A stretch of 64,000 bases of DNA from an uncultured Planctomycetia bacterium (GCA_964437495.1 CAYTGV010000009.1:6983-70982); one strand, 5' to 3'; positions 10,201 to 63,562 are shown, numbered from the stretch's first letter. Notes: generated from the letters alone by a model not told the origin. Numbers and translations are program-made.

Positions 10201-13200
10201 CAGTAAGTCCTGGGGAGAAGCAGTAGTGGTCGATGTCAGTGATTTAAGCGGTTTTGCTGAGGCCCTGGGCAGTGTTAAAGGTGATGAGAACTATGAAGTT
10301 GAGTTTGATTTCAACGAAGATGGCGAAATTAATCAGGCTGATATGGATATTTTAGAGGAAGATTTTACTGGTTCTGAAAATATGGTAAATCAGTTCATTA
10401 ACCTTACTGCAGAAAAATCTGATTTAAAAGATTTCGCTAATACTTTTGAATCAAAGGTACTATATAAGGCAACACAAACCGGATATACTGTATATGACAA
10501 ATACGGAAAAGCATCAGAGGTTTATAATTCTGAGCCTATTATTGTTGATGGAGTTACAGTAGCAGACGGTGTTTTAAATCAGAAATATGTTTACAATGAA
10601 AGAGGCTTCATGACCAGATCCGAGTCATATGGGATCAATATGGATGAATACGGAAATGTGCAAATGCAGGAAGATATCCCTGAGGCCTTACTGACTGGTT
10701 ATACCTTGTTTGATGCCGGTTCAAAGCCTACGGAAACCTATTCAGTTTATAATAGTCAGGAACTTGACGATCAAGGTAATCCTTCTATTGATGTAATGTC
10801 TAAAGTACAGGATTATACATATGAAGACGGTTTTCTGATCCAAACAAACAATTATGCCAGAAACGGCGCAGATGCAGGTTATACAACATTTGATAAATAC
10901 GGACGCCAAGAGGCATCATATAATGAAAATGAAGAGCCCCAGAAAACATCAACATATCAGTATTCTAAACAGGGATTTCTTACACAGACAAACAGCTATG
11001 GTTTAAATGGCGCCTATCTTGGAAAAACATTATTTAACAAAAAAAGCAGACCAATTGAATCCTACAACATGACGGGATCAAAAAATACGGAAAAGGGGCT
11101 GACCCAGAAATTTGTATATAATGATTATGGGTTTTTGACAAACAGCATAAGTTATGGAGAAGACCAGATTTTAACCGGACAGACATTTTATAACGGTTAT
11201 GGAAAAGCAATGTATAGCTCTAATGATGTGGGAATTACCAATTCAGCCTATGTATATGATTCAGCTGGATTTCTTGATCACACTCTGGCTCTGTCTTTTG
11301 AAGTAGGCGCAGGGCCTGATGAGGCAACGCATAATAACTTAAATGATTCAGAAGATACATTAAACACTCAGGTGCCTGAGAGCGGTTATTATGTAATCAC
11401 TGGCTATACAGTCTTCGGTGATACATCCAAGCCTGAGGCTGCTTATCAATGCTGGGGATGGACAGGCGATAATCTGCCGGCATACGGCGATGGTGCTAAA
11501 GTACAGGAATACAACTATACAGATGGTTTTCTTACAAGCACTTCAAATTACGGTAAGGATGAAACATTTATAGGTACAACTGTATTTGATAAATACGGAC
11601 GCCAGGAGGCATCATATAATGAAGTTGATGTTGATGGAGACGGCTTAGGTGAGCTTACGACAAAATTCAAATATTCAAAACAGGGTTTTATGAATACATC
11701 CTACAATTATGGCGCAAAAGGTTCTCTTGTTGGAACTACAACTTTCAATAGCTTGGGTAGACCGGAACAAAGCATTAACCAAAGAAAAGCGGTTACTCAA
11801 ACCTTCCATTACAATGAATTTACTGGAGCATTGGATGAAAGTTATTCCTGGGGTGAACCGACAGAGGTTGACGGTGTATCTACTCCAACCTTAACCGGAA
11901 CAACTGAATATGACACCTGGGGAAAAGCACAGACTCAGTTTAATTCCGAAGGCAGCATTGTTGCTAAATATGACTATGATGTGCATGGATTTATGACCCG
12001 CGCGTTTTCGTTCAGCGGCGGTACTGCTACTGATGTAGGAGTATGTACAGGATTTACAAATTATAACGCAGCCGGAAGACCGGAAGGGGCATATTCGGTA
12101 TTTAATCCGACAACTGCGAGCGGCGACTTAATGGGTAGTTGGTACGATGATTATTTCTATCTCGGGGTTGATGAGAATACCATTGGAGTTACAAAGGTAC
12201 AAGATTTCATCTATAACACAGAGGCTGAAGTTGGCGGAGATATCTTGGGGTATATCGGAACTTCTGATACCGGATTTTTGACAATGACAGTCAGTTATGG
12301 TGATAATTACAATGCGGATAACCCATCTGAATCTTTTATGGGATATACGACATTCAATAGATACGGACAACAGGATTATTCCTATAATGAACTAAATGAA
12401 CAGACAACCAAATTTAATTATTCAAGCTCAGGGTTTTTAAGTGAAACCTATAACTATGGTATAGACAAAACATTGACAGGAAAAACTGTTTTCAATGCTA
12501 CGGGAAGACCGGAAGCCTCATATAATGAGAAAGGCGCTTTACTGCAGACTTTCGAATATGTTGGCGGATTTCTTACAGCCAGTACAAGCTATGGTGATCC
12601 TGGAGATTTAGAAGTAGGCGGAATAACAGGAACTACTTCTTATGATATATACGGCAAACAAGACCAATCGCTCAATGCGGAGGGCACCCTTGTAGGTACA
12701 TTTGAATACTCAGTAAACGGTTTTATGACCAAATCCAATACCTGGGGTTATGGATTGGATAATACTACCGGAGAAACTGGCTCTACGATTACTGGCTTTA
12801 CAAATTACGATAACAAGGTCAGACCTGAAAACAGTTATGCTGTATATGAAAGTTGGCTTGGCTACAATGAATCGCTTTCTCAGGTGTTTTCATATGACAA
12901 CGATGGAGAACAAACAGGGTTTGTAACCGGCGCTCAGACATATGTTGTCAATAATGACCATAATTTTGGAACCGATAATATTGCCAATGATATTGATACT
13001 GGAGAGGTATTGCTATCAGGAACTGTCGAATATAACCACTATGGCAGACCAGAACAGACATACAATAAAGAAGGCGCAATAGTCTCAAAGAATATTTATA
13101 GTTCCAATGGTTTTATTACCAAGACTGATAACTATGGTGAGGATGGAAAAAAAGTCGGGTCTCTGTATTTTAGCGATGTTGGCAGGCCTCTTTATGCAAC

Positions 13201-14104
13201 CAATCATTCTGGTGGTGTTACAACAGAATATGTTTACAATAACGCTGGATTCTTGAATCAGACAATCGGATATATCGGCGGATCGATCAATGAAGAAACC
13301 GGAGATATCGAAGGAGTTATGAGCTCATATACAACATTTGATGTCTATTCTAAAGCTCAGGAAACCTTTCAATTGTGGACAATGAGTGAATCATCTGTTA
13401 ACTCGGAATACTATCAATTTGATGAAAATGGTACGGCTAACTATACTATAAACGGTGATGGATCTATCAGCGATGGCGGATTGACCTCAGTGAATCAGAA
13501 TGCTGATATCAGTCACTACAACGCTTTTGGATCGCTATTACAGACTGATAATAAAGGCCGACAGGGAAGCACTGTCAGTTCAACTATGTATGACTCTTTT
13601 TCTAAGCCGACATCTATCTGGAATGATAAAGGTTCGCTTGTTCAGGTTTACCATTATTCCGCACAGGGATTCCTGGATTACTCTATCAGCTATGCTACGA
13701 TGAAGAGCTATAATGATAGAGGAAACCCGGTTGATGATGGTGACTGGGATACAACAACAGAAACCTCAATAACGTTCTTTAACACGTATGGTCAGCAGAC
13801 AAATGGCTATGTTCTTAGCAATGACAGCAGCAGCGGCCAAGAAGGTTGGGACCTGGTTAACTATGTCCAGAATATTGACAATCAAACAGGCCTGGAATTG
13901 GGCGCAAAGCAGAGCGAGTATAAATATGATAATAACGGCTTCTTGTCCCAGACCAAGAACTATCAGGACAAACAGTATATTGGTTATACAACATTCGATC
14001 TAAGCGGAAGACAAGATGAATCATTTAACCAATCAGGTACATTGACCACCACTTACTTATATGATTTAAACGGCTTCTTGAACAAAAGCGCTTCGCATGG
14101 TTAA
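7220..14104 (+). CDS. Giant secreted repeat protein (2,294 aa) built from ~25 divergent YD-like repeats; likely surface/adhesin-type protein
   Basis: RBS GAGAGGAGG. N-terminal signal peptide (IVLVSFLVNALTLGNAFA). ~38-40-aa periodic unit [YxYxxxGF(L/M)xxTxxYG...GxTx(F/Y)DxxGRPxxSYNxxG] recurring along almost the whole length, with a non-repeat insert at ~9100-9560. Confidence 0.85.
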   Translation: MFNSIRSYTYIVLVSFLVNALTLGNAFALDLEAWQDMLMSDEVIQGVFGGVISSQSESGEMDTAVAPAPRVIEQSNGDIAIRFSDSAQASVSTTTEGLTKVTYSMSGARVKVKDLETNEEFEFQYELEGSVVKLVNSSGAVVRQETYNNFGQLLTTKAQGTNTNVYSSDGLNTLVKSIDQWGNETIYDDESRPDFAQYIEVDGTVVVFRNYTFDNIGILESIVDENGNSITFLADGIRVDEIRNFAGTLTSSYQYDDVSGNLISVTDHVSDSITIVDGGQYTQTYDIVPVLDDNNNPVLDAGNEPVTELVLKGTYNYDVAGNVSAITNIGEEGCVTGWTDYDEFGRISGTYNHEGALVQSYMYNDHGFLQQTMSLGDAQTVVSVTKFDLKGRPMEVWQIGNGGNKVKIQEYVYKENGLLDTTFSLGILRGTDETNETTFNKPIDTNGNLVTDGRFTYFTTSTTEYDKKGRPSTVYSIVRNDNGDYISGYDDNGDVITTADSTQALLEKQQSYSYDKRGFLSKTTSYGFNNRATSTTQFDRYGRPEKSFNAQGEQTQEYVYNLDGFLVQTKNFGENGVQTGYTNYDAKGKPTDVYNHLDTLTQKYVYDENGLMVMSLNLNGTDGVNSEIISTMSDVELIAAMWDDSFSAEVLAGIGAYNEIEGDGIPALNEALMTAIWDENNEHTTDFKKKCAMMLIKTFSDGAKGGNQYLINDVGSAYHMLGQFLEEEGNNEGAVAAYKIQASEFTGAMAIADGVSVSVTAWSTDRLVNMTDANGDPVAVNTAVVTGYTIFGGDSKPISSYQCYDDGVNGLQVTKVQDYDYSYEATKKIIVGYDTDNKPIYEKITFTQFSNFVRKTINYGDYEDTNANGTVGDAGDVQVTTGFTVFDNYGRQLETYNEDGNVVQKYSYSKSGFLNFTYSYGKDKALTGTTVFDNYSRPIASFNAYGKATRIPADLIAALADGLSIADIENPEWQPFLKGLTQTFEYGTDGLLATSKSWGEAVVVDVSDLSGFAEALGSVKGDENYEVEFDFNEDGEINQADMDILEEDFTGSENMVNQFINLTAEKSDLKDFANTFESKVLYKATQTGYTVYDKYGKASEVYNSEPIIVDGVTVADGVLNQKYVYNERGFMTRSESYGINMDEYGNVQMQEDIPEALLTGYTLFDAGSKPTETYSVYNSQELDDQGNPSIDVMSKVQDYTYEDGFLIQTNNYARNGADAGYTTFDKYGRQEASYNENEEPQKTSTYQYSKQGFLTQTNSYGLNGAYLGKTLFNKKSRPIESYNMTGSKNTEKGLTQKFVYNDYGFLTNSISYGEDQILTGQTFYNGYGKAMYSSNDVGITNSAYVYDSAGFLDHTLALSFEVGAGPDEATHNNLNDSEDTLNTQVPESGYYVITGYTVFGDTSKPEAAYQCWGWTGDNLPAYGDGAKVQEYNYTDGFLTSTSNYGKDETFIGTTVFDKYGRQEASYNEVDVDGDGLGELTTKFKYSKQGFMNTSYNYGAKGSLVGTTTFNSLGRPEQSINQRKAVTQTFHYNEFTGALDESYSWGEPTEVDGVSTPTLTGTTEYDTWGKAQTQFNSEGSIVAKYDYDVHGFMTRAFSFSGGTATDVGVCTGFTNYNAAGRPEGAYSVFNPTTASGDLMGSWYDDYFYLGVDENTIGVTKVQDFIYNTEAEVGGDILGYIGTSDTGFLTMTVSYGDNYNADNPSESFMGYTTFNRYGQQDYSYNELNEQTTKFNYSSSGFLSETYNYGIDKTLTGKTVFNATGRPEASYNEKGALLQTFEYVGGFLTASTSYGDPGDLEVGGITGTTSYDIYGKQDQSLNAEGTLVGTFEYSVNGFMTKSNTWGYGLDNTTGETGSTITGFTNYDNKVRPENSYAVYESWLGYNESLSQVFSYDNDGEQTGFVTGAQTYVVNNDHNFGTDNIANDIDTGEVLLSGTVEYNHYGRPEQTYNKEGAIVSKNIYSSNGFITKTDNYGEDGKKVGSLYFSDVGRPLYATNHSGGVTTEYVYNNAGFLNQTIGYIGGSINEETGDIEGVMSSYTTFDVYSKAQETFQLWTMSESSVNSEYYQFDENGTANYTINGDGSISDGGLTSVNQNADISHYNAFGSLLQTDNKGRQGSTVSSTMYDSFSKPTSIWNDKGSLVQVYHYSAQGFLDYSISYATMKSYNDRGNPVDDGDWDTTTETSITFFNTYGQQTNGYVLSNDSSSGQEGWDLVNYVQNIDNQTGLELGAKQSEYKYDNNGFLSQTKNYQDKQYIGYTTFDLSGRQDESFNQSGTLTTTYLYDLNGFLNKSASHG

Positions 14105-25049: not shown

Positions 25050-25180
25050 ACAGCCTATATTAATTAGTAAAATTACAAGTTATAAGTGACAAAATATTTA
25101 TTCTATGTGATTGTTTGTAACCACTAGTAACTAATTGTAACTTTCAATAACCAATTAAAAAAATAAAAGGAGAAAAACTT

Positions 25181-38665: not shown

Positions 38666-40183
38666 TTGTTAAAGAAATCTAATAAATCAATCAGTTTATT
38701 CCTAATATTTGTTATTTATGTTTTTTTCACAGCTGTTGCACCGGCATACCCCCAGCAGCAAGACAAAAAAACTCTTACTGCTATGCAACAGTTAGAAGAT
38801 GCGGTTTCTAATGTGGCTGAAAACGCAGGCAACACAGTTGTGGGCATCAGTACACAAAGGAATAGACATGTAATATCATATTTCAGGAATCATGGTCATG
38901 AATTCCTTAATGATTTTTTCCGTACTTTCTTTTTTGGAGATTCCTCCAGTCCTGAGTATAAACAATTCGGCCTTGGATCCGGAGTGATCATAAGCCATGA
39001 TGGATATATAATAACAAATGAGCATGTTATATCCGGAGCTGATAAGATCATTGTAATCCTGGCTGACGGGCGTGAGTTTCAAGCAAAATTAAAGGGAGCT
39101 GAGTACCGAACGGATATTGCATTATTAAAAATAGATGTGTCTGATCTGCCTTATGCTGAGCTTGGGGATTCAAAGACTCTCAGAAGCGGTCAATGGGCTA
39201 TAGCAATCGGCAATCCTTATAGTTATGAAGTCTCCAGCTATAAGCCTGTGGCTACCTTTGGTATTATAAGCGCCTTAGGCAGAACTTTGCCCAAGTCTAA
39301 CAATTTAACCCGGGGATATCTTGACCTGATCCAAACTGACGCAGCTATAAACCCGGGAAATTCAGGGGGCCCATTGCTAAACATCCTGGGTGAAGTCATT
39401 GGAATTAATGTAGCTATTTCAAACAGTAATTCCTCTGGGATTGGTTTTGCCATTCCTATAAATGATGCCAAATCAGTTATTGAGAAGCTTTTACAAGGAG
39501 AAAAAATCCTCGGGGGATCACTTGGCATAGGCATTAGAGACATTAACTATATTATGGCAGAGCTCTTTGACCTGAAAAGAGCACAAGGTGCCTTAGTCCT
39601 AAAGGTATTAAAAGGCAGTCTAGCTGATAGCGCTGGATTGCGCTCACAGGATATAATCCTAAAATTTAACTCTGAGAAAGTTGAGAATACAATAGATTTT
39701 ATGAAAAAAATCAGCCGCGCAAAACAAGGAGATGAGATCAGACTTAAGATTCTTCGCAACTCCTTGCCCCGTCTAATAAGGATAAAACTCAGCGAAATAC
39801 CTAAAGAAATAGCCTCAGAACAAAGCCATGAGCTCTTGAGGGTCAAAAAGAAAAAAGCAGCGCCATCCAGAACTCTCAGGAATGATCAAAACAACAAAGA
39901 AACTTCCAAGACTCCGCTTAAAACCTGGAGGGGTATGAAAGTCGCTGAAATAACTAAGGAATTTGCTAATAATTTTGAAATCGATACAGATATTGGAGTT
40001 ATTGTAACTAAAGTGATTGAGGGCACTCCGGCAGAGCAGGCAGGAATAAAAGTAAAGGATATTATTACCCAAATAAATACTTTTAATATACAAACACTGG
40101 AAGATTACCTGTTTGCCACTTCAAAGGCTTTGGGCAAAGTGCTGATTAAAACTAATAGAGCATATTTAATGATACACGACTAA
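38666..40183 (+). CDS. htrA: Periplasmic serine endoprotease DegP/HtrA family (trypsin domain + two PDZ domains), TTG start
   Basis: Signal peptide. Catalytic triad contexts ITNEHV, RTDIALLK, GNSGGPL. Two PDZ-like regions. Confidence 0.85.
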   Translation: MLKKSNKSISLFLIFVIYVFFTAVAPAYPQQQDKKTLTAMQQLEDAVSNVAENAGNTVVGISTQRNRHVISYFRNHGHEFLNDFFRTFFFGDSSSPEYKQFGLGSGVIISHDGYIITNEHVISGADKIIVILADGREFQAKLKGAEYRTDIALLKIDVSDLPYAELGDSKTLRSGQWAIAIGNPYSYEVSSYKPVATFGIISALGRTLPKSNNLTRGYLDLIQTDAAINPGNSGGPLLNILGEVIGINVAISNSNSSGIGFAIPINDAKSVIEKLLQGEKILGGSLGIGIRDINYIMAELFDLKRAQGALVLKVLKGSLADSAGLRSQDIILKFNSEKVENTIDFMKKISRAKQGDEIRLKILRNSLPRLIRIKLSEIPKEIASEQSHELLRVKKKKAAPSRTLRNDQNNKETSKTPLKTWRGMKVAEITKEFANNFEIDTDIGVIVTKVIEGTPAEQAGIKVKDIITQINTFNIQTLEDYLFATSKALGKVLIKTNRAYLMIHD

Positions 40184-40276
40184 CAAAGCAGTTCGTGATC
40201 TTGCGATGCACGACTAACAAAGCAGTTCATGATTTTGCGATGCACGACTAACAAAGCAGTTCGTGATCTTGCGATG
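40175..40276 (+). repeat. Three tandem 34-bp direct repeats (CACGACTAACAAAGCAGTTCGTGATCTTGCGATG), each able to form a 7-bp hairpin
   Basis: Read directly. Copies 1 and 3 are identical; copy 2 has 3 substitutions. Copy 1 supplies the htrA stop codon. Confidence 0.9.
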
Positions 40277-40307
40277 CATAAGCAATAGGAAAGGTTTATC
40301 GCATCAT

Positions 40308-40766
40308 ATGCCAAATGAATTAGAGTCTGCTAAAAATTTTGCTTTGAGACTGATAAAGTTTCGGATGCGCTCAAAGCATGAACTCCAAAGCCGCTTAAAA
40401 AGAAAACAGTTTTCAGAAAAGATAATAAAACAAGTTCTTGATTTTTTAAGCGATTTAGGGTATGTTAATGACTTAACCTTTGCCAAGACATGGGTTAATG
40501 ACAGATTGCAATTTAACCCCCGCAGTAGAAAACTGTTGGTTTATGAACTAAAGAATAAGGGCATAGATGAGACTATAATTAAACAATCAATTGCCGGGCT
40601 AAGCTCTGAAATCGAAGAGCAAATGGCCAGGGAGCTAGTATTAAAAAGACTGCCAAAATTAAAGGGATTATCCAGAGAAATTAAACAAAGACGTTTGAGC
40701 GGATATTTAAACAGACGCGGATTTTCAGCTGGAATTTTGTTTAAAATTATAAAGGAATTGGAATAA
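40308..40766 (+). CDS. recX: Recombination regulator RecX
   Basis: AKNFALRLIKFRMRSKHELQSRLKRK...LGYVNDLTFAKTWVNDRL three-repeat RecX pattern. The tracked ORF started inside the repeat array; I trimmed to the ATG at 40308. Confidence 0.8.
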   Translation: MPNELESAKNFALRLIKFRMRSKHELQSRLKRKQFSEKIIKQVLDFLSDLGYVNDLTFAKTWVNDRLQFNPRSRKLLVYELKNKGIDETIIKQSIAGLSSEIEEQMARELVLKRLPKLKGLSREIKQRRLSGYLNRRGFSAGILFKIIKELE

Positions 40767-53934: not shown

Positions 53935-55644
53935 ATGGCGAGCAATCAAAAACTGGGCGAATTACTGGTGCAAAAAAAAATAATCACCCAGGAACAGCTC
54001 AACAGCGCGCTTATTAGACAAAAAAAAACAAATCTGCGGATAGGAGAAGAGCTGATCCGCAGCGGAATTGTCAGCGAAGAAAGCATTATTTCTACTCTTG
54101 CGGAATTAATGGATATTCCTTTTATTAGAATTCGTACCGCTAATATCGATCAACAAGTTATCAATAAAGTGCCCGCTAGGTTTGTAACTCATTACAATTT
54201 TTTCCCCCTGCGTGAAGACGAGGGAATTCTGGGCATTGCCGTAAGCGATCCTCTGGATCTTTATTCACTGGACGAAATAAAGCTTATGCTTAAGCAGCCT
54301 ATAAAAATATCTCTGGCGACTTCCCTTGAAATTAACGAAGCAATAAAAAGATATTACGGTGTCGGCGCTAAAACCATGGCCCAAATGGTTGATGATACAC
54401 CTCATTTACAAATACTTTCAAAAGCAAATGAGAATAATGAGGAGATTCAGATGGAAGCAGCAACTGATGACCCTTCGGTAATTAAATTTCTAGATCAGAT
54501 AATTCAGCAGGCTGTAAGAGAAAGAGCTACGGATATACATATTGAGCCATTTGAGGATAATCTCAGAGTGCGTTACCGTATTGACGGACTACTTTACGAA
54601 GTGCCTGTACCGGCCGCTATTGCCCACTTTCAGTCATCAATTATTGTGCGCATGAAAATAATGGCTGAGCTTGATATTGCAGAAAAGCGGCTGCCTCAGG
54701 ATGGCAGAATACAGATTAGAATTAATAATGAAGATTTTGATTTTAGAATTTCAATTCTGCCGACTGCTTTCGGAGAAAGCATAGAAATAAGAATATTATC
54801 CAGAAAGCAGATATTTTTTACTCTTTCTGACTTGGGATTAGACACTAAAGGTATGGATATTCTGAATTCTATGCTCAAAAAACCGCATGGCATTATTCTG
54901 GTCACCGGGCCGACCGGAAGCGGAAAAACAACCACACTTTATTCGTGCCTAAACAGAATTAATGCTATGGAAAGAAAAATTATCACTATTGAAGACCCGA
55001 TCGAATATAAACTGCACGGTATTACTCAGGTTCAAGTTCATCCCAAGATTAATTTAACTTTCGCAAACGGCCTGCGTTCCATGCTTCGCCATGACCCTGA
55101 TATCATGATGGTCGGAGAAATCAGGGATCTTGAAACTGCTGAGCTTTCTATCAGAACGGCCTTGACCGGGCATCTTGTTTTCAGCACCTTACATACAAAT
55201 GACGCGCCTGGGGCTATAGCTAGATTGCTTGACATGGGTATTGAACCTTATCTAGTCGCCAGCTCCCTAAACTGCGTTATTGCGCAGCGCCTAGTGCGGG
55301 TCATTTGCCCGGCCTGCAAACAACCTTATGAAGGACATGAGGAATTAATGGATGAATTCGGTATACATAAAAACAGATTTCAGGGAAAAACTCTGTACAA
55401 GGGAGCAGGCTGTGAAAATTGTAAGTTCACTGGATATTTAGGCCGAACAGCTATATTTGAGATATTGAATATTAATGATATTATTAAGGAAATGATCCTT
55501 GATCACAGCCCTTCTAACCTGATCAAGCAAAAAGCTATAACTCAGGGTATGCAGACATTGCGCTTAAGCGGCTGGGAAAAAGTTGTCAGCGGAATAACTA
55601 CACCTGAAGAAGTAATCCGGGTAACTCAACAGGATTCAGAATAG
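53935..55644 (+). CDS. GspE/PilB/MshE-family secretion ATPase with an N-terminal MshEN (c-di-GMP-binding T2SSE_N) domain
   Basis: Two tandem 24-aa MshEN motifs (KLGELLVQKKIITQEQLNSALIRQ and RIGEELIRSGIVSEESIISTLAEL) with a 5-aa spacer. Walker A GPTGSGKTTT. Asp box. Tetracysteine CPACK...CENCK. Confidence 0.85.
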   Translation: MASNQKLGELLVQKKIITQEQLNSALIRQKKTNLRIGEELIRSGIVSEESIISTLAELMDIPFIRIRTANIDQQVINKVPARFVTHYNFFPLREDEGILGIAVSDPLDLYSLDEIKLMLKQPIKISLATSLEINEAIKRYYGVGAKTMAQMVDDTPHLQILSKANENNEEIQMEAATDDPSVIKFLDQIIQQAVRERATDIHIEPFEDNLRVRYRIDGLLYEVPVPAAIAHFQSSIIVRMKIMAELDIAEKRLPQDGRIQIRINNEDFDFRISILPTAFGESIEIRILSRKQIFFTLSDLGLDTKGMDILNSMLKKPHGIILVTGPTGSGKTTTLYSCLNRINAMERKIITIEDPIEYKLHGITQVQVHPKINLTFANGLRSMLRHDPDIMMVGEIRDLETAELSIRTALTGHLVFSTLHTNDAPGAIARLLDMGIEPYLVASSLNCVIAQRLVRVICPACKQPYEGHEELMDEFGIHKNRFQGKTLYKGAGCENCKFTGYLGRTAIFEILNINDIIKEMILDHSPSNLIKQKAITQGMQTLRLSGWEKVVSGITTPEEVIRVTQQDSE

Positions 55645-55742
55645 CGCAGAAACAAAAAAATTATGAATGACGAATTATAGGTTACGAGTGAAGAGAAAAG
55701 AAAGAATTAATAAATATCAATTCAGGGATTTTCCTTCTAAAC

Positions 55743-55897
55743 AATAACTTGTGATTCATAACTAATAACTCATGACTCGTAATTTTTAACTATCGACCAT
55801 GGACTATTGACCATTGACCGTTTTTGTTCTTTTATCTTTTAACTTGTAACTTGTAACTTGTAATTCATAACTCGTAACCCATAACTCATAACTAAAT
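55743..55897 (+). repeat. Degenerate heptanucleotide tandem-repeat tract (ACTTGTA-like units, ~19 units in two blocks) ending at the pilC start codon
   Basis: Read directly. 55842-55897 = ACTTGTA x3, then ATTCATA, ACTCGTA, ACCCATA, ACTCATA, ACTAAAT, then ATG. 55743-55819 holds 11 further 7-nt units ending in ACT/ACC. Confidence 0.7.
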
Positions 55898-57103
55898 ATG
55901 CCTATATATAAATATAAAGCTAAGGTTAAGCCAGACACTTTCCGCAACGGAACCATAGAGGCAGAAAGTGAAAAAGCAGCTATAAATAAGCTTTTACTGC
56001 TTAATTATCATCCGGTATCCTTAAAAATAAAAACAGAGGATACCGAGAGAAAATTTTCTTTTTCTAAAAAGATTACATCTAAAGATATTTATATTTTTTT
56101 GCGACAGCTTGCAAATCTAAATATTGCCGGACTTCCAATAGTAAAATCCCTAGCCAATATCAGTTCACAGTCACATAATCCAAGATTGCGCTTGATTGTT
56201 CTGGATTTAAAAGAAAAGCTTCAGAAGGGAAATACATTTTCTGAAGCGCTGACATTTTATCCACATGTATTTGGCCAATTTGAAATCAATATGATAAAGG
56301 CCGCGGAAAACACAGGAACACTTCCTGAGGTAATAGAAAAAATTGCTGATCTTAAGGAGCATGATATAGCTTTTAATCAAAGAGTACGCTCGGCACTTGC
56401 TTATCCGGTTTTACTTTTAAGCGTAGGAGTGATTACACTGCTGATATTAACAACATTTGTTCTGCCGAAATTTATAACTCTTTTCAATGACTTAGACCAG
56501 CAATTGCCGATTTTGACCCAGATGCTCATAAATACAAGTATATTTTTGAAAAATTACTGGATAATTTTAAGTGCAATAATCGGCTTTATTGTTTTCTTTG
56601 CCCAAAGGCAGTTAAGAACACAAAAGGGACGTTTTATTTTTGACGATTTAAAATTAAAAATCCCTTTACTTAAAGACATTGTTTTAAAAATTCAAATCGC
56701 CCGGTTTGCCAGAACCCTGGCAAGCCTGATTGAAAATGGAGTACCTATTATAAACTCATTGAAAATAACTGCAGAAATAGCTACTAACCTTGTTTTTTCT
56801 GCTGAAATAAAGCATGTGCATACTCAGGTTACCAAAGGACAGCATATAAGTGCGGCTTTGAAAGACAGCACTATATTTGATAAAAATACGCTTGATTTGA
56901 TCAGTGTTGGGGAGGAAAGCGGAAGACTTGATGAAATGCTTTTCCGTATTGCCAAAATGAACGAAAACGAATCTTCCGGATTAATTGAAACCCTGTTATT
57001 TCTTATCGAACCGGCTTTGATTCTTATTTTAGGTATTGTTGTTGCGATTATAGTAATGGCAATTTTACTACCGATTTTTCAGATGAATTTTTTGGTTCAG
57101 TAA
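55898..57103 (+). CDS. Type IV pilus/T2SS platform protein (PilC/GspF family)
   Basis: 401 aa. Two GspF repeats, three TM helices. N-terminus MPIYKYKA..DTFRNGTIEAESEKAAINKL is PilC-like. Confidence 0.85.
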   Translation: MPIYKYKAKVKPDTFRNGTIEAESEKAAINKLLLLNYHPVSLKIKTEDTERKFSFSKKITSKDIYIFLRQLANLNIAGLPIVKSLANISSQSHNPRLRLIVLDLKEKLQKGNTFSEALTFYPHVFGQFEINMIKAAENTGTLPEVIEKIADLKEHDIAFNQRVRSALAYPVLLLSVGVITLLILTTFVLPKFITLFNDLDQQLPILTQMLINTSIFLKNYWIILSAIIGFIVFFAQRQLRTQKGRFIFDDLKLKIPLLKDIVLKIQIARFARTLASLIENGVPIINSLKITAEIATNLVFSAEIKHVHTQVTKGQHISAALKDSTIFDKNTLDLISVGEESGRLDEMLFRIAKMNENESSGLIETLLFLIEPALILILGIVVAIIVMAILLPIFQMNFLVQ

Positions 57104-57120
57104 AAACATAAAGGAGAAAA

Positions 57121-57666
57121 ATGAAAAATAAATTCTTTATCCCGTTTAGTACTTACAAAGATGAGAAGGAATGTGTATCCCCGAGCATGGAAAAAAAGAC
57201 AAAACACTTTCAGGATAAAAACCGTAGATTAATTCTGCCAAGGATCAGGCTATCTCTAAGGGGGTTTACCTTGATCGAATTAATGCTTGTGGTAATAATT
57301 ATCGGCACTCTTGCTGCTTTAGTTATTCCCCGCTTAGCCGGCCGAGCTGAACAGGCGCGTAATACAGCTGTCAAAGCTGATATATTATCAAACATTCCTC
57401 TAGCTCTTGACCTTTATGAGCTTGATAACGGTTTCTATCCCTCAAGTCAGCAGGGACTAGAGGCATTGATTGAAAAACCGACAACCCAGCCTTTAGCAAA
57501 AAACTGGAACGGTCCTTATCTTAAAAAAAAGCCGGTTGATCCCTGGGGTAATCAATACCGATACATATGTCCCGGGGTTCATAATACTGCGGATTATGAT
57601 CTTTTCTCGGTTGGTAAAGACGGATCTGAAGGCGGTAATGATGATATTGGCAATTGGGAGGACTAA
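57121..57666 (+). CDS. GspG-like major pseudopilin/pilin with an unusually long (~48-aa) leader before the G|FTLIEL processing site
   Basis: Strong RBS AAGGAG. ...RLILPRIRLSLRG|FTLIELMLVVIIIGTLAALVIPR, then a GspG-like body (NWNGPYL...DPWGNQYRY). Confidence 0.75.
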   Translation: MKNKFFIPFSTYKDEKECVSPSMEKKTKHFQDKNRRLILPRIRLSLRGFTLIELMLVVIIIGTLAALVIPRLAGRAEQARNTAVKADILSNIPLALDLYELDNGFYPSSQQGLEALIEKPTTQPLAKNWNGPYLKKKPVDPWGNQYRYICPGVHNTADYDLFSVGKDGSEGGNDDIGNWED

Positions 57667-57673
57667 TCTGCCA

Positions 57674-58207
57674 ATGAAAAATAAAACAAAACGCTTTGCG
57701 GATAAAAAGCTTAGATTAGTTCTGCCAAAAGGCAGGCTATCACTAAGGGGGTTTACCCTTATAGAGCTACTGTGCGTAATTGTCATAATAGCTGTATTTT
57801 TTTCAATGAGTATCCCCAAATTATCTAAAACAGCCGGGAATTTTTATCTTAGAAGTAAAGCAGCTAAAATCCGGGCTTTGTGTGAATTAATAAAAAGAAC
57901 TGCAATCACTGAAAACAAGACCTATAAGTTGTTAATTGATTATTCAAACAACTCCTATTCAGTTCTTCAGAACTCTATTGATGCTATTGATGAGTTTTCG
58001 CCTGCAAGTGACTCCTTACTAAGAAAACATACTCTTCCTGAGAGCTTGTCCTTTTTTTCCCCTGAGATTCAAACCGGTATCCATGAAATAATTTTCTCAC
58101 AAAGCGGGAGTATATCTTCAGCTGCTTTTTTTATTACTAACAACAAAGACACTCCGGCCAAATTATCAACAACTTTAAGCGGAGAGATCATTTTAGAATA
58201 TATATGA
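57674..58207 (+). CDS. Minor pseudopilin (GspH-like) with a 26-aa leader homologous to the preceding gene's leader
   Basis: MKNKTKRFADKKLRLVLPKGRLSLRG|FTLIELLCVIVIIAV. Start trimmed to the ATG at 57674 (the tracked ORF starts at 57536, inside the previous gene). Confidence 0.6.
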   Translation: MKNKTKRFADKKLRLVLPKGRLSLRGFTLIELLCVIVIIAVFFSMSIPKLSKTAGNFYLRSKAAKIRALCELIKRTAITENKTYKLLIDYSNNSYSVLQNSIDAIDEFSPASDSLLRKHTLPESLSFFSPEIQTGIHEIIFSQSGSISSAAFFITNNKDTPAKLSTTLSGEIILEYI

Positions 58208-58569
58208 AAAATAAAACAAAAAATACCCCAGGATTCATTTTAATCGAAATACTTGTATCACTGTTATTGATGACTACCGGAATTCTTTTTTTGATCAATT
58301 CTCTGTCTACAATTACAAAAAGCAACCATAAGATACGAAACAACCGCCTTGCCTATACTTTGCTGGATAATGTTTTTAATCAGCTCTATTCCGGAGAGGC
58401 CATTATTCCAGGTAAAGTTGTTTTAAATAATAAAGAGTTTTTTTGGGACTTTGCAGAAAATAAAACAGATGATGGATTGAGCCATATCCTCATCAATGTT
58501 AGCTGGGGCAAAAATAATTCCGCCTCAACTGCCAGCCTATCTCATACTACAATTGACTTAAACCGATAA
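58204..58569 (+). CDS. Minor pseudopilin (GspI-like), conventional short prepilin leader
   Basis: MKNKTKNTPG|FILIEILVSLLLMTTG. 121 aa. Confidence 0.6.
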   Translation: MKNKTKNTPGFILIEILVSLLLMTTGILFLINSLSTITKSNHKIRNNRLAYTLLDNVFNQLYSGEAIIPGKVVLNNKEFFWDFAENKTDDGLSHILINVSWGKNNSASTASLSHTTIDLNR

Positions 58570-58633
58570 TGAATTCAGAATTCTTCGATAACCTAGTTGA
58601 CTTTTTACCTGAGTGGCTATAAACTAAGAAGCT

Positions 58634-59824
58634 ATGGCGATATCAGTAGGGGTGGGAACTAGTAAAGAATTTGAATCTTTTGCAGCGGGTACATTAGCTG
58701 CAAAGAATGCTTTGGATAAATTAGGAAGCAATGATCCTGATATATTATTTTGCTTTGCGTCCTCGCGTTTTGATCATATACAGCTAATACGCGGCATTAA
58801 AAGTATTCTGCCGAACGCACCGCTTATCGGGTGCACAACAGCTGGCGAAATCACCAGTGCCGGCACAGAAAAAAAATCTGTAAGTATATTGGCCATAAAG
58901 TCAAACAGCCTGCATGCTGCTATAGGCATTGGTAAGAACGTGAGTAAGAACTCCCGCGGAGCCGGCCAAGAGGTAGCCCGAGATACGATAATAAAAACGA
59001 AAAAAGGGGCTATTCGCCATGCCTTTATGATGCTTCCGGACGGACTCAATGGAAACGGAGTAGAGATCATCAGGGGAGTTCAGGAAGTACTGGGTACAAG
59101 TTTCCCCATAGTCGGCGGATCTTCAGCTGACGAATTTATGTTTAAAAAAACTTTTCAGTATTATGAGGAAAGTGTATTAACTGACTGTGTCGGAGGGATT
59201 CTTTTCTCCGGAGACATTAGTGTTGGCATCGGAGCTCGGCACGGCTGGTACCCCCTTGGCAAACCGAGAATCGTAACTGAGGCAGATCACAACATAATTA
59301 AAAAACTTGACGGGAAGCCGGCAGCAAGAATTTATGAGGATTATTTCGGCAAAAGAGCCGCTGATCTAAATAATGAGCCTCTGGCCAGAATGTCTGTAAT
59401 GTATCCGCTTGGCATGTCGATACCAGAAGAAGAAGAGTGTATTATCCGTAACGCACTCAGCGTTGACAAAAACGGAGCTTTGATTTGCGCAGGTGAGGTT
59501 TCCTGCGGTTCAGAAATTAGAATAATGATGGGATCTAAGGAAGCCGCATTAAAAGCTGCTAAAAAAGCGGCAGAAATAGCCCTTAGCGGTCTCAGAAAAC
59601 AAAAAGCTGATATTGTATTTGTATTTGATTCCGTCTCACGGGAAAGACTCTTTGGACGCAAAAGTGAAGAAGAAATAGAGGTTATCAAAAGTATATTCGG
59701 CAAAGACACTCCGATAATTGGTTTTTATACATACGGAGAACAGGCTCCTCTGGGTGCAACGATAAACCTCGGACAAACATTTTTTCATAATGAAACAATA
59801 GTAGTTTTCGCAATTGGAGAATAG
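58634..59824 (+). CDS. FIST-domain sensory protein (FIST_N + FIST_C)
   Basis: 396-aa soluble protein. Recognised by overall FIST pattern (ILFCFASSRFD...GCTTAGEI...); no TM helices. Confidence 0.6.
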   Translation: MAISVGVGTSKEFESFAAGTLAAKNALDKLGSNDPDILFCFASSRFDHIQLIRGIKSILPNAPLIGCTTAGEITSAGTEKKSVSILAIKSNSLHAAIGIGKNVSKNSRGAGQEVARDTIIKTKKGAIRHAFMMLPDGLNGNGVEIIRGVQEVLGTSFPIVGGSSADEFMFKKTFQYYEESVLTDCVGGILFSGDISVGIGARHGWYPLGKPRIVTEADHNIIKKLDGKPAARIYEDYFGKRAADLNNEPLARMSVMYPLGMSIPEEEECIIRNALSVDKNGALICAGEVSCGSEIRIMMGSKEAALKAAKKAAEIALSGLRKQKADIVFVFDSVSRERLFGRKSEEEIEVIKSIFGKDTPIIGFYTYGEQAPLGATINLGQTFFHNETIVVFAIGE

Positions 59825-59830
59825 TATAGT

Positions 59831-61411
59831 ATGAAAATTAATATATGGCTGATACTCATCATCGGAGCAGCGGTATTGAGTGTTGTTGTTATTGTTGACA
59901 ATATGGTCGCTAAGCTTATGGGCGGTTTTATCCTGCTTGTTCTGCTTGCTTATCTTGCTGAAATATCGCGTGAGGAGCGGGAACAAATTGATAAAATGCA
60001 GCATGCCTTGGATAAACTGAGAAATGCTTATGGCGAACTTGATGAACAGGCAAAAATTATTATTCGTACTGATTTAGAGTTAAATCGGACGCAAGAACAG
60101 CTTGATAAAAAAATCAATGGGCTTTACACTTTACACGAACTAGGTAAATTGATAAGTGCTACCCTAGATACAGAGAAGCTTTTTTCTCAAATCACGGAAC
60201 CGCTTATTCTTAAGCTTGGATTTGAAAAAACAATAATATTTCTAAAAAATGAATCAAAACAAAATCTTGAATGTAAAGCAGCTATCGGACTTTCCTCATT
60301 GCAAATAGACAAGATAGAACAGGCAAATATAGAGCAAGACTTTCTTCAAACTGTTCTAAAAAATGGTTCTTCTGTATGGGTTAAAAATTCTGAAGCTGCT
60401 ACAGAGGAGCAAAAAGCTTGGCTGAATTTATTTGAAGTCTCTTCATTTGTAATTGTGCCTATGGTTGTCAAGGAGTCTGTTGAGGGATATATTTTTGTTG
60501 GTAATCAGACAAATTATAATTCTGTCTCTGAAGGAGATATAGATTCTCTTTTTATACTTTCTAATCAGTTGGGCATTGCCCTTGATAATGCCCAACTTTA
60601 TGCCCAGTTAAAGCGTTCGCATGATCAATTAGAGATTCGTGTAGAAGAACGCACAAGAGAATTAGCCGCGGCAAACAAAAAGCTGATCGAGCTTGATCAA
60701 ATGAAATCCGACTTTGTTTCTGCAGTTTCTCATGAATTGCGAACACCGCTGACATCAATTAAAGGCTATGCGGCAATTCTAAGTGCAGGCCGTTTAGGTG
60801 AGGTCAGTACGGTTCAGGCAGAGAAGCTTAATAAAATAAATATTCACAGTGATGAATTGATAAAACTTGTAAATGACCTTTTAGATATTGCCCGCATTGA
60901 ATCTGGCAAGATCAGTATGAGTATTAAGCATGCTTCTCTTAATGAGATCGTCAAGAGTATCGCAGATCTATTCTTCCCGCAAACTGATGAAAAGAATATT
61001 GATCTCAAACTTGATATACCGGAACAAGATATTGCTGTATGGATGGACCCCAGCCAGATATCACGTGTATTCATAAATCTTATCGGTAATGCAATGAAAT
61101 TCACCCCTGAAAAAGGCATAATAACAATAGTGTTAAAACCTGCTGAAAAATTTATTAATGTCGAAATCATTGACTCTGGTATCGGCATAAGCGAAGAGGA
61201 TATACCTCGTTTATTTAATGAATTCTATCGTGTAGACAATGCCATTAATGCTGAGAAAAAAGGTACCGGACTGGGACTGCCGCTTGTTAAAAAGATCATT
61301 GAGGCGCATAAAGGTCAGATCTGGGTCACAAGTGAAGTCGGCAAGGGAACTACTTTCCATTTCACTTTATCTGTTGAACAAATTGATGATTCGCAAATAG
61401 CCATAAACTGA
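59831..61411 (+). CDS. Sensor histidine kinase (2 TM helices, coiled coil, GAF, HisKA, HATPase_c)
   Basis: H-box SAVSHELRTPLTSIKGYA. N, G1 and G2 boxes (GNAMKFT, DSGIGI, GTGLGL). Confidence 0.85.
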   Translation: MKINIWLILIIGAAVLSVVVIVDNMVAKLMGGFILLVLLAYLAEISREEREQIDKMQHALDKLRNAYGELDEQAKIIIRTDLELNRTQEQLDKKINGLYTLHELGKLISATLDTEKLFSQITEPLILKLGFEKTIIFLKNESKQNLECKAAIGLSSLQIDKIEQANIEQDFLQTVLKNGSSVWVKNSEAATEEQKAWLNLFEVSSFVIVPMVVKESVEGYIFVGNQTNYNSVSEGDIDSLFILSNQLGIALDNAQLYAQLKRSHDQLEIRVEERTRELAAANKKLIELDQMKSDFVSAVSHELRTPLTSIKGYAAILSAGRLGEVSTVQAEKLNKINIHSDELIKLVNDLLDIARIESGKISMSIKHASLNEIVKSIADLFFPQTDEKNIDLKLDIPEQDIAVWMDPSQISRVFINLIGNAMKFTPEKGIITIVLKPAEKFINVEIIDSGIGISEEDIPRLFNEFYRVDNAINAEKKGTGLGLPLVKKIIEAHKGQIWVTSEVGKGTTFHFTLSVEQIDDSQIAIN

Positions 61412-61429
61412 ACATAGGCAAGGAGCATA

Positions 61430-62359
61430 ATGACAAAACCTAAGATATTAATAGTTGATGATGAACCTGATATAAGAGATGTCTTAAAGATCACTTTAGA
61501 ATGCGAAGGGTTTGAGGTTCATGAGGCAAAAGACGGAGTAGAAGGACTTGAAAAGGTGCATAAAACCTCGCCGGATCTTGTTATCCTTGATTATAAAATG
61601 CCGAAAATGGATGGGCACGAAGTTTGTCAAATACTAAAAAAGGATATTCTATTGCGCCATATGCCGATCATTATGCTTACTGGCAAAGGAGAGACACAGG
61701 ATAAGATAAAAGGTATAAATGCAGGAGCAGATGATTATCTTGTAAAGCCATTTGATCCTCAAGAGCTTGTAGCACGTATAAAAATGATTGTCAGACGCAG
61801 CACACGTGATCTTGATGCCAATCCACTCAGCCGCTTACCAGGCAATGTAACGATAATGACGGAACTTGACGCGGCAATCAAAGGCACTTCGCCATTTGCC
61901 ATTTGCTATGTAGATCTGGATAAGTTTAAGGCCTTTAACGATACCTATGGATTCGAACACGGTGATGAGGTTATTCGTGAGACAGCACGTATTATTTTAA
62001 ATGGTGTCCATGAGCTTGGCAATAGAGAGGATTTTGTCGGACATATCGGTGGAGATGATTTTGTTTTTCTTACAACTACCAATCTGTCTGAGACAATCTG
62101 TAATAAGATAATCAATGACTTTGACAAGATTGCTCCTTCTTTTTACAATCAGGTTGACCGGGAACGAGGTTATACTGTGGCTAAAGACAGGCAGGGTAAT
62201 GAGCAGCATATTAAACTGCTGTCAGTTTCTATAGGTATTGTAACCAACGAATTCCGTCAAATAAATCATGTTGTGGAAATCGGTGAGATCGGGGCTGAAT
62301 TGAAAAAACTCGCCAAAGCAACTGAGGGCAGCAACTTTGTCAAAGACAGCAGAAAGTAA
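61430..62359 (+). CDS. Response regulator (REC) fused to a GGDEF-type diguanylate-cyclase domain with a variant GGDDF motif
   Basis: REC (ILIVDDEPD...LDYKMP...phospho-Asp D54 context). GGDEF fold landmarks NPLSRLPGN, YVDLDKFKAFNDTYGFEHGDEV, HIGGDDFVFL. Confidence 0.8.
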   Translation: MTKPKILIVDDEPDIRDVLKITLECEGFEVHEAKDGVEGLEKVHKTSPDLVILDYKMPKMDGHEVCQILKKDILLRHMPIIMLTGKGETQDKIKGINAGADDYLVKPFDPQELVARIKMIVRRSTRDLDANPLSRLPGNVTIMTELDAAIKGTSPFAICYVDLDKFKAFNDTYGFEHGDEVIRETARIILNGVHELGNREDFVGHIGGDDFVFLTTTNLSETICNKIINDFDKIAPSFYNQVDRERGYTVAKDRQGNEQHIKLLSVSIGIVTNEFRQINHVVEIGEIGAELKKLAKATEGSNFVKDSRK

Positions 62360-62380
62360 GAATAGTATCAAAACTATATT

Positions 62381-63421
62381 TCAAGCAAAAGCATGCTTTT
62401 CAAAGGCATATTTCCTGGCAGTGCGCTGATCGATCTTATTACTTTTCATTAAAAAATTCAGCGATTGGTCCATTGTCTGCATTCCCTCTTTACCGCAGGA
62501 TTCAATTATATTCTTTATCTGAAATGTTTTACTTTCCCGAATAAGATTCCTAATAGCCGTATTGTTAACCATGACCTCTGTAGCAAGATGATTGCTCGAA
62601 CCATCACGCGAAGGAATAAGGGTTTGAGAAACCACTACTGCAACTGCCTCGGCAAATTGCACTCTTATCTGTGCCTGTTGTTCTGCTGGGAAAACATCAA
62701 TAATACGGCTTACAGATTGAGAAGCATTACGGGTATGTAAAGTAGCAAATACAAGGTGTCCGGTCTCAGCCGCAGTTACAGCATTAGAAATAGTATCCAG
62801 ATCTCTCATTTCACCTACGAGAATGATATCCGGGTCTTCTCTTAAAGCGGCACGCAGACCGCTAGAAAAACTTTTGGTCTCTGAACCTACTTCACGCTGA
62901 TTGATTATACAGCGTTTATGCTCATGCAAATATTCAATTGGATCTTCAAGCGTAATAATATGAGCGCTTCTTTCCAAATTTATTTTATTAATGATCGAAG
63001 CCAGGGTGGTGGATTTTCCGCTTCCAGTCGGACCGGTAACTAATACAAGACCTCTTTGCAAGTTACAGACATTTTTTACTGCCGCAGGAAGCCCCAGGGA
63101 ATCAAGCGGTTTTATTCTTTGCGGCACCAATCTAAAGGCAGCGCATATTCCTTTTCTGTCTTTATAAATATTAATCCTAAACCTTGCAAAATTTCCTATA
63201 TTAATCCCCATATCTATTTCTTTGCCCTTATCTATAGAACTCAATCTTTCTTCCGGCATAATATCCAAAAGAATTTTTCTAATATCAGCATCTTGTAAAG
63301 CAATGTCCGTCAGCGGCTGCATCTCTGTAGGTCGTCTTATCATCGGAGGTAATCCAACACAAAGATGCATATCTGAAATATCTCTGGTAACAATCTCTTG
63401 AAAAAGCTTTTCTGAATCCAT
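62381..63421 (-). CDS. pilT: Twitching-motility retraction ATPase PilT
   Basis: Aligns with P. aeruginosa PilT (ISDMHLCVGLPPMIR...GLVLVTGPTGSGKSTTLAS...REDPDIILVGEMRDLDT...AETGHLVFATLHT). Confidence 0.9.
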   Translation of the reverse strand: MDSEKLFQEIVTRDISDMHLCVGLPPMIRRPTEMQPLTDIALQDADIRKILLDIMPEERLSSIDKGKEIDMGINIGNFARFRINIYKDRKGICAAFRLVPQRIKPLDSLGLPAAVKNVCNLQRGLVLVTGPTGSGKSTTLASIINKINLERSAHIITLEDPIEYLHEHKRCIINQREVGSETKSFSSGLRAALREDPDIILVGEMRDLDTISNAVTAAETGHLVFATLHTRNASQSVSRIIDVFPAEQQAQIRVQFAEAVAVVVSQTLIPSRDGSSNHLATEVMVNNTAIRNLIRESKTFQIKNIIESCGKEGMQTMDQSLNFLMKSNKIDQRTARKYAFEKHAFA

Positions 63422-63562
63422 TATACTTCCCCCAGTTAATAGTTTATAATTACTATGCTAAATATTTTATATTAAATGAGTTATGAAGTCAAATATTTTC
63501 ATTTTATTGACTTTTAAAGTCTTAGAATCTATACTATTAGCTCATCTTAAAAAGAGGGGAAT

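Follow-up and report, generated by a model that had tools for sequence, protein, structure and literature searches.

The spacer upstream of pilC in a 64-kb stretch of DNA from an uncultured member of Candidatus Omnitrophota (GCA_964437495.1, CAYTGV010000009.1:6983-70982; hereafter the window, meaning the whole 64,000 nt) is filled with a lineage-specific array of heptads of the form T-R-A-C-Y-N-N, of the same kind as the TAACTGA-type arrays that precede start codons without a Shine-Dalgarno (SD) sequence. The heptad tract is real and lies far beyond chance. Part of it is predicted to pair with a purine-rich arm located further upstream, and its start-proximal end is predicted to stay open; the explanation favoured here, to which even weight is given for and against, is that the heptad leader may set the expression of pilC post-transcriptionally by means of this helix and of the open, SD-less leader.

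Structure of the heptad tract

The spacer between the pilB/gspE-like and the pilC/gspF-like genes measured 253 nt and on direct reading consisted nearly entirely of 7-nt units. The first block, beginning at 55743, comprised eleven of them (AATAACT, TGTGATT, CATAACT, AATAACT, CATGACT, CGTAATT, TTTAACT, ATCGACC, ATGGACT, ATTGACC and ATTGACC), nine of which ended with ACT or ACC and two with ATT; their number agrees with the preliminary description of this DNA. Block 1 was followed by a 21-nt T-rich stretch divisible into three heptads (GTTTTTG, TTCTTTT and ATCTTTT). The last units, read in the ACTTGTA register, were three copies of ACTTGTA followed by ATTCATA, ACTCGTA, ACCCATA, ACTCATA and ACTAAAT, and then the ATG at 55898, exactly the three perfect and five degenerate copies running up to the start codon that had been described. 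Eight to nine stop codons were present in each of the three forward frames across the spacer.

The claimed 7-nt period was borne out by autocorrelation: the self-identity of 55743-55897 reached 0.68 at lag 7, 0.62 at lag 14 and 0.56 at lag 21, the remaining lags within 1-21 giving 0.19-0.32, and none of 2000 dinucleotide-preserving shuffles attained 0.68 at any lag between 4 and 14 (shuffle maximum 0.43). The tract was listed independently by Tandem Repeats Finder. A periodicity scan flagged it at lags 7 and 14 and, at the lags covered (5-11 and 14) and the thresholds set for that scan, detected no other periodic stretch in the 64-kb window.

The natural register of the units was TAACTNN, i.e., a core of T-R-A-C-Y followed by two free positions, with the two blocks shifted by 4 nt relative to each other in this register. 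Block 1 then read TAACTTG, TGATTCA, TAACTAA, TAACTCA, TGACTCG, TAATTTT, TAACTAT, CGACCAT, GGACTAT, TGACCAT and TGACCGT, and block 2 consisted of three perfect TAACTTG copies (55840-55860), TAATTCA, TAACTCG, TAACCCA, TAACTCA and TAACTAA. Among the resulting 19 units TAACTTG occurred four times and TAACTCA and TAACTAA twice each, next to TAACTCG, TGACTCG, TGACCAT and others; perfect tandem copies were limited to the three TAACTTG, all other units being degenerate. The core was well kept (T in 17/19, purine as A13 and G6, A in 19/19, C in 16/19, pyrimidine as T15 and C4), with an information content of 1.1-2.0 bits at positions 1-5 as compared to 0.2-0.4 bits at positions 6-7.

The predicted open leader of pilC

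An SD was present in 31 of the 55 genes of the window (about 56%), including both neighbours of pilC (GGAGG before pilB and AAGGAG before the gspG-like pseudopilin gene), and pilC itself had none. The tetramers GGAG, GAGG, AGGA and AAGG were not found in the last 20 nt before pilC in any of the eight lineages compared, and TAAC was located at -9 to -24 in seven of these eight. The last 30 nt before pilC contained a single G against a window median of six, the lowest value of the 40 plus-strand ATG starts compared. For 55840-55915, covering block 2 and the first 18 nt of pilC, a minimum free energy (MFE) of only -0.3 kcal/mol was predicted at the RNA level (z +1.88), 197 out of 200 shuffles folding at least as well, and the 26 nt before the AUG were unpaired in both the MFE and the centroid folds.

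Among the other signals searched for, no small plus-strand upstream open reading frame (ORF) terminating near the pilC ATG was found in the spacer, the promoter scan gave no sigma-70-like site (-35/-10 hexamers) inside the tract, the terminator scan returned no intrinsic-terminator-like sites (GC stem plus U-run), and Rfam gave no matches at E<=1 in 55500-56000. A 50-aa ORF on the minus strand (55804-55956), running through block 2, was rejected as unconserved, having stops in three relatives (L082, L042 and L083).

The predicted long-range helix

Folding of the whole-spacer sense RNA produced a long-range stem (MFE -48.8 kcal/mol, z -2.96), in which the two arms given in Table 1 are predicted to form 39 bp (33 Watson-Crick and 6 G-U pairs) interrupted by single-nucleotide mismatches. 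Besides the T-rich heptads, the 3' arm took in all three perfect copies of TAACTTG as well as TAATTCATAA. The arm duplex was calculated at -37.4 kcal/mol versus -15.4 +/- 3.2 kcal/mol for shuffled arms (z -6.97; 0/300 shuffles), and the corresponding duplex of the antisense strand reached -23.6 kcal/mol; the greater strength in the sense strand favours a structure of the sense RNA. Arm-versus-arm complementarity gave negative z values in all single-copy spacers of the relatives tested (L083, -3.0; L047, -1.6; L043, -1.2; L082, -0.9; L080, -0.4), a clade-wide tendency. In the window the helix begins 17 nt past the pilB stop codon, which is probably beyond the footprint of a ribosome terminating on pilB; that such a ribosome might open the helix, and thereby couple the two genes, is an unproven idea.

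Table 1. Coordinates of the heptad tract, its predicted structural parts, the flanking genes and the fba array
Feature	Coordinates	Strand	Basis
PilB/GspE/MshE-like secretion ATPase, 569 aa, stop TAG at 55642-55644	53935..55644	+	Pfam T2SSE 1.3e-135, MshEN 1.1e-19
Purine-rich left arm, antisense heptads TTATGAA TGACGAA TTATAGG TTACGAG TGAAGAG AAAAGAA; predicted 5' helix strand	55661..55705	+	inverted repeats, MFE fold, duplex test
Block 1, 11 TRACYNN heptads, within the predicted long hairpin, without counterpart in relatives	55745..55821	+	per-position information; L082/L001 alignment
T-rich spacer, three heptads, part of the predicted 3' helix strand	55820..55840	+	heptad cutting, pair list
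Predicted 3' strand of the long-range helix	55828..55870	+	pair list
Block 2, 8 TAACTNN heptads, last base 2 nt before the ATG	55840..55895	+	direct reading, per-position information
Predicted open, G-poor leader without SD, CGTAACCCATAACTCATAACTAAAT, adjoining the start codon	55872..55897	+	MFE and centroid folds, SD listing
PilC/GspF-family platform protein, 401 aa	55898..57103	+	Pfam T2SSF 8.7e-56
Array before fba, lineage-specific, with TTACAAGTTATAAGT in antisense orientation (25072-25086) followed by period-10 units and a normal SD	25070..25152	+	

Growth of the tract in sister lineages

The loci fetched for comparison encoded PilC proteins 79-86% identical to that of the window in an unchanged gene order, and their pilB-pilC spacers differed profoundly in length: 54 nt in L001, 76 nt in L045/L046, 124 nt in L080/L081, 132 nt in L047/L048, 161 nt in L083, 290 nt in L082 and at least 490 nt in L042, with the 253 nt of the window among the longer ones. 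What the relatives had in common were the first ~30 nt downstream of the pilB stop codon (with L001 and L082) and a TAACT near the ATG. Such conserved ends around a spacer of variable length show that the tract was expanded at this site and does not represent an element conserved from ancient times. Most of the long spacers were alike in having purine-rich heptads at the 5' side (AAAAGTA in most lineages, TGACGAA/TTACGAG in the window) and pyrimidine-rich sense heptads reaching the ATG. In L082 the TAAC motif recurred with a period of 7/14, and L080 (4937-4980) and L081 (1270-1313) carried five TAAC upstream of pilC at an exact spacing of 10 nt (TAACtattag, TAACccatat, TAACtgtttg, TAACtgctgg, TAACc), the TAAC being the only constant part. 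Further heptad families were found in L042 (GGACGAG/AGACGAA, GCTGATA x3, AAAGCAG and AAGTAAA).

Four near-identical assemblies of the P0002 lineage differed from each other by one AGTAAAA unit (one copy versus two) and by the poly-A length, and the one-unit difference directly attests to slippage by 7 nt at a time. Together with the sister spacers ranging from 54 to at least 490 nt, it upheld the earlier suggestion that the tract is a product of slipped-strand mispairing, and an origin by stepwise in-place duplication is supported by the comparison of the lineages.

Some peculiarities of these loci may be mentioned in passing. The L080 and L081 assemblies differed in a poly-A run (7 versus 8), and the pilB homologue of L080 (3171-4876) was called as two ORFs, a 180-aa MshEN and a 381-aa T2SSE part, which may reflect either a frameshift or an assembly error. 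Positions 1-493 of L042 (and likewise L041, L043 and L044) combined mixed heptad families with a direct duplication of ~110 nt upstream of pilC. All 12 contigs of the P0002 lineage were only 2-5 kb long, and the four that were read start 179-493 nt upstream of pilC.

Block 2 could be aligned with its counterpart in L082 unit by unit (MAFFT): eight units were present in each, with a degenerate fourth unit (TAAT) in both. Since the PilC proteins of the two are 84% identical, this unit-wise orthology makes the start-adjacent array older than the split of these species. In this one pairwise comparison of eight units, differences were found at 6/40 core and 9/16 free positions (Fisher p=0.0055). 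Block 2 has kept its unit number and evolves slower in the core, which argues against rapid phase variation as well as against pure neutral decay.

The fba array and related arrays elsewhere

The preliminary description had also seen GTAAC-containing heptads in phase upstream of fba. The motif was indeed there, as GTAAC at 25117, 25127 and 25137 and ATAAC at 25147 (units TTGTAAC/TAGTAAC/TTGTAAC/CAATAAC), however with a period of 10 and not of 7. In addition, blastn found a 22-nt antisense piece at 25071-25092, 91% identical to the pilC tract in inverted orientation. The ahcY-fba spacer measured 131 nt in the window compared to 52, 47 and 27 nt in L084, L085 and L086, respectively, where the array was not found and the spacers held an SD only, plus one TTGTAAC in L085. 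On this comparison the fba array is a second case in this genome of a seed amplified in place and not a conserved operator; the recurrence of the motif, as proposed earlier, is confirmed, and the promoter role that had been offered for it is not supported. The whole fold of the fba spacer was not significant (z +0.25).

A scan of both strands of the window and of about 125 kb of close-relative loci located clusters of at least four TAAC within 60 nt only upstream of pilC (in the window, L080 and L082) and of the window fba, all in sense orientation; extension to all 84 loci (about 605 kb) added a handful of clusters in unrelated metagenome-assembled genomes (MAGs) on either strand. Among 49 sequences (L001-L048 and the window) period-7 arrays gave eight matches versus 0-2 for the other periods between 4 and 12, a count that comes with no background rate. 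In IMG/VR at least 120 matches each were obtained for TAACT at a period of 7, for TAACT at a period of 8 and for a permuted 5-mer at a period of 7, which makes this search uninformative on whether TAACT or period 7 is special. When the orientations of the 125 viral arrays among the matches listed were crudely compared, 62 were forward and 76 reverse, with no bias toward the starts of downstream ORFs.

Period-7 arrays were also observed beside pilC or pilin genes of unrelated MAGs (L010, 2310-2387; L016, 3318-3373; L019, 1952-2007; L038, 8738-8805; L057, 4771-4892; L050, 4760-4960), with units such as AGAATAT and TCAATTT and several families in L050. In one unrelated MAG, AAAGCTA was present in at least six versus four copies at two paralogous loci, and an array in an unrelated MAG consisted of TAACNNN accompanied, ahead of the SD of a pilin gene, by a GTTA array in inverted orientation. 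A 508-aa gene call in P0121 (ENA) matched the 335-aa Fba at 816 bits and may be N-terminally extended or fused.

Comparison with known heptad systems

The closest known counterparts are the TAACTGA heptamers of Cand. Maribeggiatoa, for which 169 sets of direct repeats and one inverted repeat were reported (MacGregor 2015, PMC4679880). These are mostly forward, stop roughly 1 nt short of the start codon and overlap and replace the SD; they contain stops in all forward frames, lack predicted RNA structure and are mixed with related heptamers (PMC4679880). They occur in Beggiatoaceae, some Cyanobacteria and some Bacteroidetes; in the Bacteroidetes and Cyanothece the spacers of relatives were shorter, with indels in 7-nt increments and contigs ending in the repeats (PMC4679880). 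Their function is unexplained, with S1, cold-shock proteins and CsrA proposed as binders (PMC4679880). The pilC tract agrees with them in nearly all of these respects: 7-nt units with a TAACT core, forward orientation and an end 1-2 nt before the start (the last unit of the window, TAACTAA, ends at 55895), absence of an SD, direct repeats without predicted structure, stops in the three forward frames, intermixed related heptamers, shorter and repeat-free spacers in relatives, 7-nt indels and contig breaks. It differs in its units (TAACTTG/TCA/TCG/TAA and TGAC variants, with no exact TAACTGA), in its greater length and degeneracy (19 units plus three T-rich ones) and in the complementary antisense arm with the resulting long predicted hairpin. 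Moreover, the Omnitrophota lie outside that survey, and two loci were seen in 64 kb here.

The second counterpart is the (ATCTTTC)n repeat of hmw1A/hmw2A in Haemophilus influenzae, present in 13-24 copies in the constructs tested and never found in fewer than eleven in natural strains (PMC8262952, PMC12721329). It is transcribed as part of the 5' untranslated region (UTR); ten of the repeats make up one side of an extended, imperfect hairpin there, and cleavage of this hairpin by RNase III raises expression (PMC12721329). Both systems have heptads upstream of a gene for a surface structure, which pair (in the window by prediction) with a purine-rich arm into a long imperfect hairpin, and the paired arm of the window includes ATCTTTT and TTCTTTT units. 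The regulatory logic of hmw is post-transcriptional and is proposed for the window by analogy. However, hmw has at least eleven perfect repeats and measurable phase variation as compared to three perfect repeats and no variation among the assemblies seen in the window; its repeats make up the left arm with a G-rich partner, those of the window the right arm with an A/G-rich one; and the sequences are not homologous.

Each monomer of Bacillus subtilis CspB binds a single heptamer, for which GTCTTTG/T is the optimum (PMC1904285). Each of the T-rich heptads of the window is one mismatch away from it, which is a resemblance only. The tract also recalls the cyanobacterial short tandemly repeated repetitive (STRR) sequences and other long simple sequence repeats (SSRs; 5-11 nt) of non-pathogens, likewise intergenic heptamer arrays with several families side by side, lineage-specific and with a proposed slippage origin. 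The STRR consensus units are CCCCAGT, TTGGTCA and CAACAGT, and STRRs are highly abundant genome-wide. None of these units is present in the window tract, where only TGACCAT resembles STRR2 (in reverse complement).

Proposed mode of action

In the favoured post-transcriptional explanation the array originated, as the comparison of the lineages supports, from a TAACT seed already standing close to the start codon, by tandem duplication in 7-nt steps followed by point-mutational decay in which the core was kept. The spacer would be transcribed together with pilC, and the purine-rich 5' arm would pair with the T-rich heptads and the three TAACTTG copies into a long imperfect hairpin with a 39-bp basal helix. 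This helix is of the double-stranded RNA type cleaved by RNase III in the heptad 5' UTR of Haemophilus hmw and may be processed in the same way. The last ~26 nt, containing four TAAC units, would remain single-stranded, G-poor and structure-free up to the AUG and may permit SD-independent initiation, possibly via an oligonucleotide-binding (OB) fold single-strand binder such as S1 or a cold-shock protein. With respect to pilB, the element could in addition uncouple or process pilC, and its copy number would shift on evolutionary time scales, with no rapid switch.

Several observations weigh against this explanation. The expression of pilC does not require the expansion, since close relatives make do with spacers of 54-76 nt without the array. 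Significant arm-helix energies were confined to the lineage of the window and to L083, those of L082, L043 and L080 not being significant, and the whole-spacer folds of L042 (z -0.26) and L082 (z -0.09) were not significant. Exact TAACTGA was absent from all 19 units. The core-versus-free contrast comes from a single pair of eight-unit arrays and could partly be explained by a CpG mutational hotspot (TG/CG/CA at positions 6-7). Furthermore, two TAAC arrays in about 190 kb of the clade (the window plus about 125 kb of relatives) establish no genome-wide regulon, and we infer, rather than observe, the presence of the spacer in the pilC mRNA, the formation of the hairpin and the binding of a protein to the units.

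An extension of the same idea is speculative and, in our estimate, improbable. According to it the T-R-A-C-Y heptad would be a selected cis-code on single-stranded mRNA, read by a protein of the OB-fold type (such as a cold-shock-domain protein or S1) whose footprint spans 7 nt, and replacing the SD at particular cistrons, the same code (TAACTGA and its relatives) operating in Beggiatoaceae, Cyanobacteria, Bacteroidetes and Omnitrophota; amplification of the units and a complementary masking arm would then constitute an evolutionary translation rheostat within operons.

Alternative explanations

The strongest competitor, although rather unlikely, is that the tract is a functionless by-product: an insertion-tolerant spacer filled with decaying repeats by replication slippage, for which 7-nt units are favoured in many bacteria, the hairpin and the open leader being side effects of composition. 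The absence of the tract from close relatives, the hypervariable length of the spacer, the non-TAAC heptad families of L042 (GGACGAG, GCTGATA), the prevalence of period 7 among the arrays of the fetched loci (8 matches vs 0-2) and the second expansion at fba in the same genome are all consistent with it, as is the rank of heptanucleotides as the most abundant long SSR class (Mrazek et al. 2007, to the extent summarised in PMC4679880). It accounts poorly for a core far better conserved than positions 6-7, whether units of the array or different species are compared, for the unit count and order retained in the window and L082, and for an arm complementarity that far exceeds that of composition-matched shuffles and is strand-asymmetric.

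The preliminary description proposed a phase-variable switch of pilus expression, i.e., a contingency locus in which slipped-strand changes in the ACTTGTA/TAACTTG copy number switch or grade the expression of pilC; on the evidence gathered here this is very unlikely. Three perfect copies do stand directly 5' of a gene for a surface appendage, near-identical strains of a sister lineage differ by a 7-nt indel and in poly-A length, and the hmw heptad SSR provides a precedent (PMC8262952, PMC12721329). The two Logan contigs from SRR8862237 both end at the perfect TAACTTG repeat, overlapping by 28 nt, and all 12 P0002-lineage contigs are short. Nevertheless, the perfect copies number only three, compared with eleven or more in hmw. 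A single allele was shared by the window, ENA ERZ27316756 and both SRR8862237 contigs, assemblies that are possibly not independent; seven contigs had identical PilC and PilB, the spacers of five of them not being readable. A search of JGI metagenomes with PilC yielded relatives of <=35% identity only and no strain variants. The unit count of block 2 is unchanged at 84% PilC identity, the polymorphic 7-nt unit of the sister lineage lies in a distal A-rich block away from the ATG, and the tract is located outside the ORF and not between recognisable -35/-10 boxes. PilC is, besides, a platform protein of the cytoplasmic membrane and not an exposed antigen. The ON/OFF switch is not supported, in view of the three perfect copies, the one allele across assemblies and the equal block 2 count in L082.

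Equally improbable is an array of transcription factor sites at the DNA level, e.g., for an OmpR/PhoB-type regulator on TGTAAC direct repeats, making up a promoter or operator common to pilC and fba. The exact 10-nt period of GTAAC/TAAC upstream of fba, and of pilC in L080/L081, would suit such a regulator, as would a conserved core motif with varying spacers, and TGTAAC N4 TGTAAC is presumably the reverse complement of OmpR/RpaB-type direct repeats. In the window tract, however, a period of 7 does not let tandemly bound proteins share one helix face, the repeats extend to -3 of the ATG within the expected 5' UTR, and the strand asymmetry of the predicted helix points to RNA. The promoter element suggested in the preliminary description is likewise not supported, given the lack of a promoter-like site in the tract, the absence of the fba array from three relatives (hence no ancestral operator) and its period of 10.

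Correia elements (Correia repeat enclosed elements, CREE) of Neisseria are intergenic miniature inverted-repeat transposable elements of about 100-200 nt that form long hairpins, are transcribed and cut by RNase III and alter the expression of neighbouring genes. An insertion of such an element between pilB and pilC, suggested by the intergenic position, the about 200 nt extra over L001 in the form of a long inverted-repeat hairpin and the short related inverted piece upstream of fba, is most improbable and was rejected, since no second copy, and only a 22-nt match, turned up when the spacer was searched by blastn in the window and in 12 related loci (about 125 kb), the interior consists of tandem heptads with no unique core, no target-site duplication is present, and the short spacers of the relatives retain both ends and the TAACT seed with no clean empty site.

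Gene context and other features of the window

The gene downstream of the tract is pilC in the family sense: it encodes a T2SS-F/PilC-family platform protein and stands beside genes for a GspE/MshE-like ATPase and a GspG-like pseudopilin, which qualifies the plain label used at first. Its homologues were full length from residue 1. It is followed by genes for the GspG-like pseudopilin, two proteins with an N-methyl motif, a FIST sensor, a GAF histidine kinase and a response-regulator-GGDEF protein; a PilT-like ATPase was assigned, by synteny with relatives, to the ORF 62381-63421 on the opposite strand. As a whole, the 53935-63421 cluster resembles a cyclic di-GMP (c-di-GMP)-linked pilus system of the mannose-sensitive haemagglutinin (MSHA)/type II secretion system (T2SS)-like kind, with an MshEN ATPase, platform protein, pseudopilin, minor pilins, FIST, GAF histidine kinase and response-regulator-GGDEF proteins. 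A 31-nt unit was repeated twice (78% matches) at 63460-63521, upstream of the minus-strand PilT-like gene.

Elsewhere in the window, a c-di-GMP-I riboswitch (RF01051) was located at 6930-7052 on the plus strand (50 bits versus a gathering score of 35), within the 521-nt spacer upstream of a 2294-aa ORF (7220-14104). A tRNA-Pro (GGG) was found at 2590-2667 on the plus strand; a mechanically listed ORF start at 2623 overlaps it and is therefore probably wrong. A 34-nt tandem repeat at 40171-40278 (3.2 copies, 93% matches; GATGCACGACTAACAAAGCAGTTCGTGATCTTGC) straddles the end of the ORF 38666-40183 and the spacer before the ORF 40263-40766.

Implications

In many free-living bacteria no class of long simple repeats is commoner than heptanucleotide arrays, whose function has been unexplained since the STRR and Beggiatoa TAACTGA reports. 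The kind of array described here is therefore known, albeit functionally unexplained; what is new is its occurrence in this phylum and its combination with an hmw-like predicted hairpin. The value of the pilC locus is that the growth of an array from a single seed can be traced across sister species, that the core of the unit is visibly constrained, that the array is joined by a complementary arm as in hmw, the only heptad system dissected experimentally, and that pilC is a single SD-less cistron flanked by two SD-bearing neighbours. By itself the locus establishes no new mechanism, and it yields a testable hypothesis, namely that heptad arrays of this kind may serve SD-independent translation or RNase III processing.

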